A DNA stretch of 64,000 bases from the NCBI GenBank assembly GCA_963814585.1, contig CAWFDF010000008.1, positions 192,001-256,000 of the forward strand, in the 5' to 3' direction. Shown here in pieces: positions 36,001-45,000 of this stretch (its first letter is position 1; every line of letters begins with the position of its first letter). This DNA comes from an uncultured delta proteobacterium (GTDB taxonomy: Bacteria; Myxococcota; Myxococcia; Myxococcales; Anaeromyxobacteraceae). The position numbers were made by a program.

Positions 36001-39000
36001 CGGCGACGAGGGCGAGGACGTGACGGCGCCCCGGGTCGACCTCGGTGGCCAGCAGATCGAGGGCGGCCTGCGCGGTGACCAGCGGCACCAGGCGCTGCGC
36101 CTCGGGAGGGAGCCTGGCGCTGCCGGCCGGCACCGCCGCCAGCACCGCGTCGAGCAGCCGGGGATCGCCCAGGGTCCGGAGCAGCTCGTCGCGCAGCGGA
36201 CCGGGAGGCATCCGCGCGGCCAGCTCCGCCAGCTCCGCCAGCGGCGCCAGCGCCGCGTCGGCGATGAAGGCGTCGCGCAGCTCGACCAGGAAGAGCTGCG
36301 CCTCCCGCACCGGGACCACGCCGCGCGCGGCCTCGGCGAGCAGGAGCCCGGCCAGGCGGAGGGCGCCGGCCCCCAGCGCCTCGGCCGCCTCGCCGGCGTG
36401 GAGCGAGGCCAGGGCCTCCGCCGGCACGTCGCGCCAGGCGATGGGACCGGGAGGCGGGAGGAGCGGGAACGGCGCGTCGAAGCCGGCCGGCGCGCGGCTC
36501 CCCGCCCCCCGGGACCGGCGGGTCCGCTCGGGCTCCGGGTTGTCCTCCTCCGGCGTGAACCCCTCGACGGCCTCGAAGCCGATCCGCTGGAACTCACCCT
36601 TGCGGAGCAGCGTGATGACGTCCTCCTCCTGCTGCCGGATGCCCACGTAGCGGACGGCGAGGATCTCGAGGAAGGCCAGCAGCTCCTCCCAGGGCACGCC
36701 GGATCGGAAGGTGATGCGGCGAACGCCATCCCGGAAGAGCCGGAAGGCCAGGGACCGCTCCCGGTCCTCCTCGCGATAGACGGCCTCTCCGTCGCGCAGC
36801 AGCTCGAACGGAAGGACCTCGAGCGTCAGGTCGGCGGCGGCCGTGGCCGCCTCGGCGCGGGCCTGGTAGTCGGAGAGGAACTGCCGGACCACGGCGTTGC
36901 CGGGCGCGTAGAGCGTGAAGGAGCGCGCGGCCTTGGAGAGCGCGGAGACGAACTGCGCCGCCACCGCGCCCGGACCGCTGGTGGCCAGCGGCGCGGCGGG
37001 CCCGGCCTCCCTCGGTGAGCCACCTCTCGGCGGCATGGGCAGCGCCATCCGACCCCCTCCGAGGGAGTGAACCTCCCCGGCACGGGGGCGTCAAGGAAAC
37101 GGGCGTGCCGGCGGACGGGACGTGGCAGAAGCGCGCGTGCGCCAACGTGACGCAAGCGCGGGTGTGGAGAAATTGAACGATGATGCCGGGCGCCGGTCGC
37201 GTGGGGTGGAGCCCAGCGCCGCGGGTCGGGGACGATCACGCTTCAGGGGGGGGGCCACATGAAGTCCACCGAAACGCCTCCCGGCCCCTCGGCCGATCTC
37301 GGGTACGAGCTCCGCTGGCGCGATCGCCTCTCCTCCAAGCTCCTGCTCTTCACCACCATGGCCGGGCTGGTGATCGTGGCGGCGTTCTTCGTCGCCGAGC
37401 TCCGCTTCGAGCGGTTCGTGGTCCAGCAGGCTGCCGAGGAGTCGGACCTGGTGGCCCAGACCGCGGCCAGCGCCATCTACCGGGCCATGCTCCTCGACCG
37501 GCGCGAGGACGCCTACCGCATCCTCGAAGACATCGGGCGGCAGCCGGGCGTCGATCGGATCCGCCTCCTCGACCACGGCGGCCGCGTCGCCTTCTCGACC
37601 GACGCCACCGAGACCGGCCGGACGCTGGACCCTCGCGGCCCGCACTGCGTGGTCTGCCACGCCGCCGGGGCGGATCGGGCCCCGGGGCTCGAGGGGCGCC
37701 GGCGCGTCGAGGAGGTCGGGGGGCAGCGCGTGCTCCAGCTGGTCGCGCCCATGCCCAACCAGCCGGCCTGCGCCGCCGCCGGCTGCCACGTCCACCCCAC
37801 CGCGGCGAGGCTCCTCGGGCTGCTCGCCGTCGATCGCTCCCTGGCCGCGGCCGATGCCCGGCTGGCTGGCTTCCGCTGGAGCTCGCTGGTGGTCGCCGCC
37901 GTGGTCGCCGCCGCCCTGGGGCTGGCCTTCTGGTGGCTGACCCACCGCCGCCTGGTCCAGCCGGTGGCTGCCCTGGTGGCGGCCACCCGCCGCGTCGCCC
38001 ATCAGGACCTGGAGCAGCCTGCGGCGCCCGACTTCGGCGGGGAGCTCGGGCTGCTGGCGGCCTCCTTCGGCGAGATGGTCCGCTCCCTGCGGGCCACCCG
38101 CGCCGAGCTGGATGCGCTCAACCAGGACCTCGAGCGCCAGGTCGAGGACCGCACCCGGGCGCTGGTCGAGACCCGCGAGCAGCTGGCGCGGGGCGAGACG
38201 CTGGCCGCCCTGGGCCGGCTCTCCGCCGCCGTCGGACACCGGCTGGGCAGCCCGCTCTCCGGCATCCTCACCATCGCCCGGAACGGCGCCCGCTCGCTCG
38301 AGGCCGGCCCCCTTCCCGACCCCGAGCGCGCCCGGCTGGCCCACGATCTCCGGCTCGTCGAGCGGGAGGCCGATCGCGCCGGCGAGGTGGTGGTGCGGCT
38401 CCTCGACTTCTCGCGCGAGCGCCCCTTCTCGGCGCAGCTCCTCGGAGCCGACTCGGTGGTCGACGAGGCGCTGGAGCTGGCCACGTCCGAGGCGAGGCTG
38501 CAGGGCATCGCCGTCACCCGGCGCAGCACGCCGACCTCTCCGCTCCTGGCCGACCGCAGCCAGCTCCGGCAGGCCGTGCTCGACACGCTGCTCCGGGCCT
38601 TCGGCGCCATGCCGGACGGCGGGCAGCTCACCGTCGAGACCGGCCCGGCCGCGAGCGGCCGCGAGGTCGAGATCGCCGTCACCGACTCGGGCCCGATGCT
38701 CCCGGCCGGGGAGCTGGGCCGCGTCTTCGAGCCCGACTTCTCGGCCACGGCGGGCGCCGGCCTCGGGCTGGCGCAGGCCCACGCCATCGCCGTCCGCCAC
38801 GGCGGGCGGCTCGAGGTCACCAGCGAGCCGGGACGAGGCACCCGGATCGCCATCCGCCTGCCGGCACCACCTGCGGCCGACGAGGGCGCCGGGCGGTGAC
38901 TCCGCGATGGACCCCATCTCCATCTGCTGGATCGGGGAGCACGAGGCGGTCCCGGCGGTGATCGAGCGCGTGCGCCACGAGCTGGAGCGCGCCTACGGCG

Positions 39001-42000: not shown

Positions 42001-45000
42001 ACACCGGGATGCCGGAGCGCCCGTACACCGAGCTGGTGGCCGGCGCGCTGGGCGCTCCCCCCTTCGTCATGACGCTCTGGCCGCCGCTGCTGATGGGGCT
42101 CTACACGTTCTCGAAGCGCCGTGAAGAGGTCGAGGAGAAGGAGGAGCACCATGGCTAACGCCACCGCCGCTTCGCTGGCCGGCAGCTCGTCGTTCTTCCG
42201 CGAGAAGATCTTGCTGGGCATGGGCTGGGGCGAGTACCTCCGCTCCCTGCTCACTCCGGGCAACGCCGTGGCCGCCGTCATCCTGGTGGTCGGCCTCCCG
42301 CTGCTCGCCTACCGGTTCGCGGCCGGCCTGGGCGCCACCACGGCCCTGTCCCAGGCCTACCCCTGGGGCCTCTGGATCGGCTTCGACATGATGACCGGCA
42401 TCGTCCTCGCCGCCGGGGGCTTCACCGTCGGGGCCACGGTCCAGCTGCTCGGCCTGAAGGACTACCACGCCATCGAGCGGTCGGCGATCCTCACCGCCTT
42501 CCTCGGCTACCTGATGGCGATCTTCGGCCTGCTGGCCGACCTGGGCCGGCCCTGGAACATCGTCCAGGCCATCTTCAACTACGGCACCGCCTCGGCCCTC
42601 TTCGAGGTCGCCTGGTGCGTGATGTGCTACTCGACCGTCCTCTTCCTGGAGTTCACCCTGCCCTTCTTCGAGTGGCTCGGCTGGCGGCGCATCCACGCCG
42701 TCCTCAAGAAGGCGCTCATCGCCCTCACCGTGATGTCGGTGGTCTTCTCCACCATGCACCAGTCGGCGCTCGGGTCGCTCTTCCTGCTGGCGCCCACCAA
42801 GCTCCACCCGCTCTGGTACTCGCCCTTCATCTTCATCTTCTTCTTCATCTCGGCGATCCTGGCCGGGATCGCCATGGCCATCATCGAGAGCTCCATCTCG
42901 CACCGGGTCTTCGCCCGCCAGCTGGGTGGGCAGCACGTCGACGTGGACAAGCTGGTGGTCGGCCTCGGCAAGGCCGGCGCGGTGGTGTCCTTCGCCTACT
43001 TCTTCATCAAGCTGCAGGGCGTCATCGACGGACACGCCTGGGGTCACCTGGCCACCGGGTGGGGCGCGCTCTTCCTCGTCGAGACCGTCGGCCTGGTGCT
43101 GGTCCCCTCCTTCCTCTTCGCCTACGGTGCCCGCAACGGCCAGGCCGGGCCCGTCAAGCTGGCGGCGGTGCTGACGGTGTGCGGCATCATCCTCAACCGG
43201 CTCAACGTCGCGGTCATCGCCTTCAACTGGACCAACCCCGTCCGGTACGCGCCGAGCTGGATGGAGGTCTGGGTCTCGATCACGCTGGTCACGCTCGGCG
43301 TCGTCGCCTTCCGGTGGATCGTCAACCGCATGCCGATCCTCCGTGAGGACCCGGCCTTCCCGCAGGAACACTGAGCGGGCCATCCAGGGGGGCTGCGGCG
43401 CCGCGCTCATGCGCGGCGCCGCGTCATTTCCGGGCCGCCCGGGACCCTTCCGCCTCCTCACCCCCTCGGACCAGGCCCGGGACCGGCCCGCACCGGACTC
43501 GACGCCAGCCAGGCGGCGCGCGCCCCCGCGGCCGGCCGGGTCCAGCCCGGCGAGGAGCTGCCTGGGCGCCGTGCGCCACCGTGGACCTGGTGCCCGTAGA
43601 GCGCCGTCGAAGTTCTCCACACATCCCCTCCACGACTGTAGAGCGCCGTTGAGTTCCTCCACGCTTCCCTGCGGGAGCCCGTCCCCACCGGACGCGGTGG
43701 CACCTTCACCTACCTGGAAGTACGGGCCATTTGGCGTCGCCGCCGGGCCGAGCCGACTTGGCCGCATCCTTGCTACTGCTCTCCATGGAGTCGCGAAGTA
43801 CCCGCCCGCAACGGAGACGGCAATGACCCACGAATTCCTCAGCATCTACCCGGCCAAGCTCATGGAGTACGGCCTGGCGATCACCTACCTGCTGCTCTTC
43901 ATCCCCATGTGGCGCTACGTGCAGGGTGGCCGCCGCCAGGCCGCGGAGGCCGTGGTGCGCGGGCGCCGCGACGCCGAGCGCTGGCCTGCCGTCGCGGTGG
44001 CGGCCCCGTGGCCGAGCCTCGGCTGGTTCCAGGTCCCGGCAGGCGTGGCCCTCCACCCGGGTCACACCTGGGCCCGGCTCGACGCCGACGGCACCGTGGC
44101 GGTGGGCGTGGATGACTTCGCCCAGCGGCTGGTGGCGCCGACCCGCATCGAGCTGCCGCGCGCCGGCGCCGTGGTGGCGCAGGGTGAGTCGGCCGTGGCG
44201 CTGGGCGACGGCCACCGCACCGTGCCGCTGGTCTCCCCGGTCAACGGGACGGTGGTGGCGGTGAACCGCGCCGTGGCCGAGACCCCGGACCTGCTCCAGG
44301 ACCCCTACGGCGCCGGCTGGCTCTTCAAGGTGAAGGCCCCGCGGCTCGAGGCCGACCAGCGGCAGCTGCTCCACGCCCAGTCGGCGCGCCACTTCCTGGA
44401 TGGCGAGGCGGAGGCCCTGGCGATGCGGGCCAGCCCGGAGGTCGGACAGGTGCTGCAGGACGGCGGCGTGCCGGTCCACGGGCTGGCCCGGGCGCTGGCC
44501 GGGGACGCCGGCTGGGACGCGCTGGCCCGCGAGTTCTTCCACACCGAGAAGGGGACGCCATGACCACCACGCTCCGTCGGGCCCTGCGGATGACCAGCGC
44601 CGTCGTGCTGCTGGGCGCCGGCCTGGCCCTGGCCTACGAGCTGCCCCGCCTTCCCGGGCCCGTCGCCCTGAAGCGAGGCGCCGACAGCCCCGGCCTGGTG
44701 ACCTTCCGGCACGAGAGCCACGTCGACTCGGCCAAGCCCACCTGCCTGGCCTGCCACCCGGAGCGGTTCAGCCTGCTCGGCCGCACCGCCACCGAGAAGC
44801 GGCCGGACATCACCCACGATCGCATGACCGGGGGGCGCGACTGCGGCGCCTGCCACGGGAAGGAGGCCTTCGGCCTGGACGACTGCACCAACTGTCACGC
44901 GGAGTGAGCGTAGCGTCACGGATGACCGCATCATGCTGAAAGGAAGAAGGAGACTGTCATGACCACCATCTACGGAGCCATCGAACTGGTTGCGGTGTTC

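Follow-up and report, generated by a model that had tools for sequence, protein, structure and literature searches.

The window, a stretch of 64,000 nucleotides from an uncultured member of the Anaeromyxobacteraceae, contains an archaemetzincin gene (M54, g01434) between a sensor kinase-like gene (HK1, g01433) and a sigma-54 activator gene, followed by redox genes and the genes of two GcvH-like proteins, GH1 (g01439) and GH2 (g01441) (Table 1). Our gene check bore out the positions and the order (kinase, M54, activator, then FeS, NrfD and GH1) proposed in the first-pass annotation. The latter covered 37259..44563, so that GH2 fell just beyond its range, and it overlooked the ORF of a small Cys4 protein and two sigma-54 promoters. 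The kinase and M54 genes are 7 nt apart, and the 3' end of the M54 gene overlaps the start of the activator gene by 14 nt. The folds are known ones throughout; what may be new is the pairing of M54 with the GcvH-like proteins and the circuit, for which a literature search, which reached few subscription journals and does not establish absence from print, found no describing paper.

Table 1. Features of the archaemetzincin/GcvH-like locus (positions in the window)
Feature	Position	Strand	Basis
HK1 (g01433), membrane sensor with haem-c-type motifs CxxCH and Cx4CH, HAMP, degenerate kinase core	37259..38899	+	profiles, alignment
Archaemetzincin M54 (g01434), 182 aa	38907..39455	+	Pfam and NCBIfam profiles, motif, alignment
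Glu126 of M54 (AfAmzA Glu114, S1' depth)	39282..39284	+	alignment, covariation, modelled interface
Lys159 of M54 (AfAmzA Lys146, S1' depth)	39381..39383	+	alignment, covariation
NtrC-type sigma-54 activator (REC, AAA+, HTH_8)	39442..40851	+	profiles
Tandem enhancer-like repeat, copy 1	40845..40915	+	20-mer core, locus comparison
Sigma-54 -24/-12 element TGGC-N7-TTGC, for Cys4/FeS/NrfD operon	41010..41024	+	sequence
Small Cys4 protein, 69 aa	41049..41258	+	ORF, alignment
HmcB/HybA-like 4Fe-4S protein, twin-arginine-type leader	41259..42158	+	NF045715; leader read off sequence
HmcC/NrfD-like membrane subunit	42151..43374	+	profiles
Tandem enhancer-like repeat, copy 2	43594..43666	+	20-mer core, locus comparison
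Second sigma-54 -24/-12 element, for GH1-cytochrome c7-GH2	43759..43773	+	sequence
GH1 (g01439), GcvH-like	43823..44563	+	profiles, alignment, predicted fold
GH1 loop 206-218; predicted scissile bond Gln212-Asp213 (Asp codon 44459-44461)	44438..44476	+	register inferred
Cytochrome c7-like protein	44560..44907	+	profiles
GH2 (g01441), membrane-anchored GcvH-like paralog	44959..45660	+	profiles, sequence
GH2 loop 200-212, DGG with Asp206	45556..45594	+	sequence; lost in protease-less genus g2
HK2, intact HK1 paralog (41% identical), same haem motifs	46103..47887	-	profiles, alignment

HK1 is a membrane sensor, as annotated, but its kinase core looks inactive. His327 is kept, while the acidic residue that should follow it is replaced by Arg328, both Asn of the N-box are lost (D442 and R446 stand where HK2 has Asn) and the G2 box is shortened. 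The same degeneracy was found in L001, L002, L003, L005, and L006, while the kinases of the remaining loci compared had HE[IL]NNP and the N-box intact where the alignment was readable. HK1 is therefore probably a pseudokinase in this lineage, judging from its sequence, and HK2 probably the working kinase of the system. With up to 3 mismatches allowed, the genome has just two copies of the core 20-mer of the tandem repeat. This core is conserved in L001, L002, and L005, and the repeat is a probable binding site of the activator. A REC-AAA+-HTH activator, -24/-12 promoter elements and upstream repeats, as predicted here, are those of an NtrC-type two-component system.

The Cys4 protein has eight invariant residues (C3, P4, C14, P18, K21, P24, C34, and C42) and gave no Pfam, NCBIfam or fold match; its domain is fused to GcvH-like proteins at other loci. 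The FeS and NrfD subunits, the HmcD-like helix of GH1 and the cytochrome c recall the HmcBCD core of Desulfovibrio Hmc and HybAB. Unlike Hmc, the locus stays below the equivalog cut-offs (324 bits against 420 for the 4Fe-4S protein with NF045715, 442 against 550 for the NrfD-like subunit with NF045714), its operon has no HmcE/F-like or catalytic subunit, and the HmcD-like helix bears a GcvH-like domain. No HmcA, HmcE or HmcF was found among the genes scanned in 37259-47887.

Archaemetzincins are found in archaea, bacteria and animals. The protein g01434 matched both Pfam PF07998 (E 3.5e-23; 83.1 bits, cut-off 24.4) and NCBIfam NF033823 (159.5 bits, cut-off 145), and the motif HEVGHAYGLVHC-x4-C-x-M-x16-CxxC claimed for it was found in its sequence. 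The HExxHxxGxxH element (HEVGHAYGLVH, residues 129-139) has the catalytic Glu130 intact. In an alignment of 35 M54 sequences, H129, E130, H133, G136, and H139 were invariant, as were C140, C145, M147, C164, and C167 of the Cys4 zinc finger and Met-turn. No signal peptide was seen in g01434. A sequence search for solved relatives found only the archaeal AmzA proteins (PDB 2X7M, 4AXQ, 3ZVS/4A3W, 3LMC; MEROPS M54), which share with it the family, zinc motif, Cys4 finger, Met-turn and S1' residues. In the bacterial samples, AmzA-like genes are solitary and their edge segment is of the LNFVFG type, whereas g01434, with the edge segment FIPILTYVFGEAQL, belongs to an operon-linked subtype (IP[IV][LF]T[FY]) tied to GH genes. 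When AfAmzA was solved (PMC3427221), the natural substrates of archaemetzincins were unknown and AmzA proteins were inactive in standard assays; the depth of S1' was set by Glu114 and Lys146, and a basic or hydrophobic rather than acidic substrate was inferred.

GH1 consists of an HmcD-like N-terminal membrane helix, a GcvH barrel and a C-terminal helix-loop-helix. Its AlphaFold2 model (pLDDT 90.9) had H-proteins as best Foldseek matches (3ab9, E 6.6e-14). The barrel is that of the glycine cleavage H-protein (PF01597; TIGR00527; including GcvH-L), but the GH proteins lack the lipoyl lysine, are membrane-anchored and have a tail of about 55 residues, helix-DGG-helix. Aligned to the genome's own GcvH, GH1 has His131 at the lipoyl-lysine position, and this column has no conserved Lys across the GcvH-like alignment. 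Both proteins fell under all NCBIfam H-protein cut-offs (the two scored 71.6 and 45.7 with TIGR00527, cut-off 115.85, and 28.5 and 34.8 with NF045810, cut-off 150). The ortholog of GH1 in L185 matched HmcD NF045712 with E 1.1e-5, at 25.2 against a cut-off of 34, and in genus g2 the HmcD-like peptide stands alone.

The loops quoted earlier (residues 206-218 of GH1, 200-212 of GH2) were verified in the sequences. Of the 'invariant C-terminal QDGG', the DGG stood (D, G and G at 90-99%) but not the Q (Q212, 44-51%), and the loop, though in the C-terminal tail region, is internal, between two helices about 30 residues from the C-terminus. Conservation begins at the predicted P1' (P1 Q44 A28 P10; P1' D90; P2' G99; P3' G95, in percent). 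Conserved as it is, the loop block had a pLDDT of only 55 when GH1 was modelled alone. Paralogs without the loop include REC-GH fusions.

Hydrogenase maturation proteases trim a C-terminal peptide from a subunit, and M54 could likewise make a one-off maturation cut in an HmcBCD-like subunit, with no signalling role. GH1 is indeed an HmcD-like fusion, and the domain with its loop also occurs in fusions with HdrA/MvhD-like and NuoG-like redox proteins. However, minimal kinase-activator-M54-GH modules occur with no FeS/NrfD nearby (L091, L193, L194, L197, L205, L213, and L214) and M54 is co-transcribed with the regulators rather than with the complex, which makes this explanation quite unlikely.

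The first-pass annotation had placed GH1 206-218 in the protease cleft, and our own complex model reproduced this. It scored 0.89, against 0.17 for the best of 3 controls, which were unrelated proteins and included neither a DGG-less GH protein nor an AmzA-type protease. It was built from our own alignments; of 157 solved complexes, 116 pass the score mark, as do 2 of 215 mismatched pairs. At least 98% of the contacts agreed between runs, with a partner pLDDT of at least 92. In the model the loop runs antiparallel along the protease edge strand (contacts 95-143/144, 93-145, 89-147, and 86-151) and touches H129, E130, H133, H139, and E126; K159 is absent from the listed contacts. Protease clefts may draw in flexible loops during modelling.

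Two other lines of evidence, co-loss and covariation, do not draw on this score. Proximity of M54 to GcvH-like genes was confirmed in our own sample: GH1 as query fetched 79 loci, and 49 of them carried M54 (next to the activator in 43, next to a Cys-rich GcvH-like gene in 5, at the edge of the locus in 1). M54-only loci do exist, as noted earlier, but the 12 myxobacterial ones that we checked all belonged to other subfamilies (CarG-like or AmzA-like), so that the need for other partners mostly falls away. In the related genus g2, operon-type M54 was present in 0 of 11 genomes and the redox operon in 6 of 11. Kinase and activator are retained there (abutting in 4/4 cases with both on the contig), the GH1 domain is lost from all 6 operons, and GH2 keeps its barrel and helices in all 6 with a diverged loop from which DGG is gone. 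Being confined to one genus, this co-loss counts as about one evolutionary event. In genus g5 the GH pair is relocated, and both DGG and M54 are retained. Counter to this pattern, G286 keeps D/SGG loops, and a search found no M54 in it, though G317 has the same type of locus with M54 elsewhere. In G372 M54 is absent and DGG kept, the same deletion having removed 92 activator residues.

Since genome-level co-occurrence cannot separate partners that share a cluster, and related genomes do not count as independent cases, protease and GH proteins could merely share a regulon and never touch. This is highly improbable given that the loss in genus g2 is loop-specific, that six genomes with two systems retain matched protease-loop pairs, and that the complex model was controlled. 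Only slightly better placed, and still very unlikely, is a role of M54 as an adaptor for the activator or kinase, with DGG binding something else and the model an open-cleft artefact. The activator adjoins 43 of the 49 M54 genes, and Myxococcus CarG, according to PMC8156234, is likewise a metzincin-motif protein coupled to a regulator gene, which controls transcription within the CarD complex without proteolysis. CarG, however, has Gln in place of the catalytic Glu; g01434 keeps Glu130 and scored 91.7 bits with the separate CarG family (NF033824, cut-off 250), and was rejected as a member. Moreover, where M54 and DGG are both lost, activator and kinase remain intact, and apparent M54-activator fusions were mostly frameshifted reads.

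Protease column 126 ranked first of 165 in tracking Asp versus Thr/Ser in the loop (0.96, next 0.76), a relation that an adaptor would leave unexplained. Loops near the 91 proteases with E126 were Asp-only for 90, and those near the 37 with V/I126 were Thr/Ser/Ala-only for 35; L126 accompanies both Asp and Ser loops. Residue 159 is K/R in 83/83 Asp-class proteases and mostly gone in the Thr/Ser class. The V/I/L126 proteases form one clade (support 0.93), which columns 146 and 156 also track, so that the covariation too amounts to about one event. As E126 and K159 correspond to the residues that set S1' depth in AmzA, Asp213 would lie at P1' and the cut would fall at Gln212-Asp213. The earlier proposal of the GcvH-like loop as substrate or ligand is thus supported by the controlled model, the matched loss in genus g2 and the S1' covariation, and direct, substrate-like binding of the loop, cut or not, is probable.

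These three lines fit equally well with a canonical, substrate-like inhibitor, an activator-induced GH protein that plugs the protease, whose true substrate might be the activator or kinase; Asp213 may then ligate zinc or occupy S1' without turnover. Helices hold the GH1 loop at both ends, carboxylates ligate zinc in AmzA crystals (PMC3427221), and M54 is usually co-transcribed with the activator, GH being induced separately. Yet GH2 is kept after loss of the protease with the loop alone changed, and therefore has its own job; M54 lies apart from the activator in L185-L189, L201, L348, and L349; and the top specificity column follows the GH loop. We regard inhibition as unlikely, and lean slightly towards the view that this M54 subfamily acts in the cytoplasm as an endopeptidase dedicated to the GcvH-like, lipoyl-less proteins of its regulon.

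As such an endopeptidase, M54 would bind the exposed loop (hydrophobic-hydrophobic-X-D-G-G) by its edge strand. Leu211 would occupy P2 and Asp213 the S1' pocket, and the two glycines would pass through the narrow primed side. The most likely cuts would be Gln212-Asp213 in GH1 and Ala205-Asp206 in GH2, freeing or loosening the last helix of about 30 residues. We propose that the haem-sensor kinase (HK2 here, HK1 being probably inactive) phosphorylates the activator, which would switch on Cys4-FeS-NrfD and GH1-cytochrome-GH2 through the two matching enhancers. The GH proteins would sit at the cytoplasmic face of the quinone-linked module, where the protease, made with the activator, could reset or switch them.

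IrrE/DdrO and BlaR1/BlaI are systems in which a dedicated zinc protease cuts a co-encoded regulator, and PspA/PspF and NifL/NifA provide feedback partners of sigma-54 activators. The circuit would resemble them in logic (a signal cassette that brings its own protease, or feedback from a product of the regulon to the activator), but its protease is of another family than in the first two, and its target would have an H-protein fold and lack a DNA-binding domain. More tentatively, and with the odds somewhat against it, M54 and GH may be the first natural enzyme-substrate pair of the archaemetzincin family and part of a new signalling module. A lipoate-free GcvH fold would carry a transplantable helix-DGG-helix cleavage tag on redox proteins (HmcD-like anchor, HdrA/MvhD-like, NuoG-like, Cys-rich), read by a dedicated protease with a code of two S1' residues (Glu126/Lys159 for Asp, hydrophobic ones for Thr). 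This code would separate paralogous circuits within a cell, and the module would, in several anaerobic phyla, provide a sigma-54 two-component system with feedback on redox state. The finding would give a substrate-orphan protease family a partner, and would name both an exact bond (Gln212-Asp213) and the residues, 126 and 159, that switch specificity. It would also assign a role to the many proteins that are readily mistaken for glycine-cleavage H in annotation, and it suggests that anaerobes of soil and sediment control the expression of respiratory genes by proteolysis.

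The genes around the archaemetzincin M54 (g01434) are listed in the table, together with other features of the window. The window corresponds to G000:C8:192001-256000, and the fetched loci closest to it came from Anaeromyxobacter and Anaeromyxobacteraceae. A tandem repeat followed by TGGC-N7-TTGC was found upstream of the Cys-rich ORF, and another such set upstream of GH1 (g01439), the first of two GcvH-like proteins. Searched for in the whole genome with up to 3 mismatches, the 20-mer core of the repeat occurred only at these two places. A looser pattern matched 6 of 432 promoter-like sites genome-wide. 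Both the repeat and the TGGC-N7-TTGC elements are kept in close relatives. We infer that the sigma-54 activator would drive both operons. A scan for sigma-70 promoters and terminators gave no signal beyond chance. A fixed-motif search for the enhancer in more distant loci returned few matches, so that the signs of a putative GH regulon are confined to close relatives.

Features of the window (coordinates are window positions)
Feature	Position	Strand	Remark
Crp/Fnr-type regulator, protoglobin-domain histidine kinase, double receiver protein, hybrid kinase, second sigma-54 activator	27248-32730		cluster 5 kb upstream; possibly oxygen-sensing
HEAT-repeat gene, then overlapping genes	34024-37048	-	transcribed divergently to the kinase operon; one of them HD-GYP-like by eye
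Kinase-like sensor gene HK1 (g01433)	37259-38899	+	
Archaemetzincin M54	38907-39455	+	
Sigma-54 activator	39442-40851	+	
69-aa Cys-rich (Cys4) ORF	41049-41258	+	not annotated; heads the sigma-54 operon
HmcB-like FeS protein, then HmcC/NrfD-like subunit	between Cys4 ORF and GH1	+	
GH1	43823-44563	+	
Cytochrome c7 gene	between GH1 and GH2	+	
GH2 (g01441)	44959-45660	+	
Intergenic short palindrome, CCCAGGCAAGATG...AGAGGATCGGCTCTC-like	45780-45965, 47830-47900, 56790-56856		recurrent, by eye; possibly a REP or MITE-like repeat
Second kinase HK2	46103-47887	-	convergent toward the + strand operon
Monomeric isocitrate dehydrogenase-like and malate dehydrogenase-like genes	49200-52421		by eye; ordinary TCA genes

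The GH proteins have the H-protein fold and lack the lipoyl lysine. The N-terminal helix of GH1 is HmcD-like (an ortholog matches NF045712 with an E value of 1.1e-5, under the cut-off) and is encoded by a separate gene of about 50 aa in related genomes. Specific to the family is a C-terminal tail made of a helix-loop-helix. The composition of the loop in 206 dereplicated tails was Q44/A28/P10, D90, G99, G95, which makes the motif DGG; of the invariant QDGG loop described in the first-pass annotation, the DGG part was thus borne out, but not the Gln. The loop of GH1 was poorly predicted in the monomer model.

GcvH-like domains were found fused to Cys4, other Cys-rich, NuoG-like, HdrA/MvhD-like and receiver domains, the receiver fusions being devoid of DGG. 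A search for longer GH proteins returned none, though such fusions exist among the fetched loci. The role of the GH barrel is the weakest link of the mechanism: GH2 persists where the protease has been lost, and the receiver-domain fusions suggest that the barrel may be a signalling interaction domain. In three loci (L225 7047-10241, L228 6604-9537 and L229 7136-10102), an HdrA-like/ferredoxin/MvhD/molybdopterin-binding-domain protein ends in a GcvH-like domain with an S/AGG loop. Loci L057, L067 and L074 encode a kinase followed by two DGG-less REC-GcvH-like fusions, one of them membrane-anchored, within a duplicated FeS/NrfD cluster. These loci were considered as M54-less, but M54 was found farther along the same clusters. 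Additional GH1 genes or GH1-GH2 pairs with an intact DGG lie outside the operon in L011, L014, L021, L023, L025 and L267-L276, and several genomes carry two such pairs.

M54 passes NF033823 and retains all catalytic and Cys4 residues. Its solved relatives by sequence were only four archaeal archaemetzincin (AmzA) sequences. The bacterial M54s that we sampled fell into three groups, labelled according to our reading of aligned motifs: an operon-linked subtype, marked by the edge segment IP[IV][LF]T[FY], stand-alone AmzA-like proteins, and proteins resembling CarG, a non-proteolytic protein with a metzincin motif (PMC8156234). What is said here on the conservation of the catalytic motif and on subtype versus neighbourhood comes from alignments and sequence reading. 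A Thermococcus homolog is reported to be active on casein (PMC4681839). The possibility that M54 is an adaptor like CarG appears very improbable to us. A third, divergent M54-like type was seen in L095 (8232-8978, G000:C8 about 558200-559000), and likewise in L087 and L246; neither the catalytic Glu nor the zinc-motif Gly is present in it, and its scores are far below NF033823 and NF033824. Fusions of M54 were also looked for, but the 6 longer matches were mostly frameshifted read-throughs into neighbouring genes, none contained GcvH, and they were not taken as evidence.

A complex model of M54 (residues 1-176) with GH1 (67-246) scored 0.89, the best of 3 controls reaching 0.17. Of 157 solved complexes, 116 reached the mark for such scores, as did 2 of 215 mismatched pairs; this calibration is only approximate here because our own alignments were used. 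The runs agreed on at least 98% of the contacts, with a partner pLDDT of at least 92. The modelled interface brings M54 83-96, 126, 129-130, 133, 138-139 and 149-152 against GH1 206-218, the very range placed there by the first-pass annotation. The loop and the M54 strands are antiparallel in the model, and substrates run antiparallel according to PMC3427221. Leu211 had its closest contacts with Ala93 (Ala85 in the edge strand of AfAmzA, a solved AmzA) and His133. With the usual metzincin register, these contacts would put Leu211 at P2 and Asp213 at P1'. The model supports the binding of GH1 by M54. A search for a solved complex of an M54-GH pair turned up none, but the prediction may draw in part on other metzincin-peptide complexes learned by the predictor. 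We consider it likely that M54 binds GH directly, in a substrate-like manner. That the two proteins make no contact is hardly credible. The loop could also act as a canonical inhibitor of M54, which we regard as unlikely.

Covariation was determined in 159-160 proteases with a GH loop at most 9 kb away, dereplicated to 127 for the ranking of columns. The ranking excluded six frameshift-rich or mixed loci (L022, L027, L028, L040, L064 and L255), and L085/L093 did not contribute their AmzA-like M54 to it. At the first position of DGG, loops close to E126 proteases had only Asp in 90 of 91 cases, the remaining locus having Asp and Glu, while those close to V/I126 proteases had only Thr, Ser or Ala in 35 of 37, both mixed loci holding two systems. 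L126 proteases (n = 23) went with Ser, Asp or both, and T/A/S126 proteases (n = 9) with Asp. Six genomes (G705, G697, G552, G578, G566 and G640) each combine an E126/DGG system with a V-or-I126/TG[GA] system. Column 126 came out on top of 165 protease columns (0.96 in the 127 dereplicated proteases), followed by 146 (0.76) and 156 (0.74). Position 159 was K/R in 83 of 83 proteases whose loops carry Asp, and Lys in 8 of the 44 others. In AfAmzA, the depth of S1' is set by Glu114 and Lys146, as stated in PMC3427221. These residues align to E126 and K159 of the window M54, and the ranking preceded the comparison with the S1' residues of that paper. The V/I/L126 proteases form a single clade (support 0.93), so the covariation amounts to one or two events; what gives it weight is that the first-ranked column is a residue of the pocket, not the counts.

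M54 was present in 49 of 79 loci fetched with GH1. In the phylum of the window, 135 of 201 genomes had some M54 and 30 had a GH tail at E <=1e-6. A tail was found in all 27 genomes with an M54 of at least 175 bits, a count that is partly circular, since the threshold was chosen post hoc and the profile was built on GH-linked M54s. Twelve lower-scoring M54 loci were read; each proved to be CarG- or AmzA-like, and none had a GH closer than about 10 kb. In the phylum of G004, a tail (E <=1e-9) was found in 40 of 151 genomes, 36 of which had M54; of the four genomes with a tail alone, three carry it on contigs of only 3-6 kb, and the last one is G286. The 20 M54-positive genomes of this phylum without a tail match all had AmzA-like or long forms. 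In the class of G002 (121 genomes), all 55 genomes with a tail were among the 57 with M54. In the phylum of G427 (201 genomes), all 38 genomes with a tail had M54; of 10 M54-only genomes, 6 were read, 3 being AmzA-like and 3 having an operon that includes a divergent GH with DGG. Related genomes make all these counts non-independent, and co-occurrence alone does not single out a partner within one cluster. Three Acidobacteriota-level genomes were put forward as having an operon-type M54 without a GH tail, but their operon does carry a DGG-bearing GH.

A natural deletion was found in genus g2. Among 92 genomes of the family, its 11 genomes all lack the operon-type M54, and 6 have the operon. 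In all 6 operons, GH1 is reduced to an HmcD-like peptide and GH2 keeps the barrel and flanking helices, with DGG gone and a loop that varies by genome. A kinase of intact length abuts the activator in all 4 operons with both on the contig. In two genomes of genus g6, FeS, NrfD, the HmcD-like peptide and the cytochrome are all that is left, GH and the operon-type M54 being absent; in genus g5, the GH pairs are relocated, and both DGG and M54 are retained. There were three counter-cases. G286 has D/SGG loops and M54 was not found in it, although in G317 the matching locus is served by an M54 at another site. G372 keeps DGG without M54, but the activator too is truncated by the gap. In G432, a short contig carries an operon-type M54, and no tail was found in this genome.

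Genus g2, which lacks the protease, still has the Cys4 ORF (41049-41258). One or two copies of its domain are fused to GcvH-like proteins elsewhere, for instance in L030 and L185-L189. The protein matched no Pfam or NCBIfam family, its atlas matches were below 0.9 and none was named, and a structure model (pTM 0.34) gave no fold match.

In HK1, H327 is followed by R328, the N-box has no Asn and the G2 box is short. HK2, 41% identical to it, is intact. The same degenerate/intact pair occurs in L001 (where HK2 is frameshifted in the assembly), L002, L003, L005 and L006, so the degeneracy is not an assembly error of this genome. This is a lineage-specific duplication that gave a probable pseudokinase and an intact copy. 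The kinase adjoining M54 is intact in most other loci. The haem motifs of HK1 are both kept and its frame is open, so a role in sensing or modulation is possible. The two kinase copies of L266 each retain His-Glu in the H-box and Asn in the N-box, possibly an intermediate state. The sensors paired with the module vary, and include haem-motif, Cache, PAS and Rossmann-PAS kinases (those of L193, L205 and L226 among them).

We found no published description of an archaemetzincin-GH system in a search that left most subscription journals and supplements outside. The core of the module is made up of the kinase, the activator, M54 and GH, FeS/NrfD being optional. Cleavage of GH as a maturation step seems improbable, and we lean slightly towards cleavage of GH by M54 with a regulatory role.
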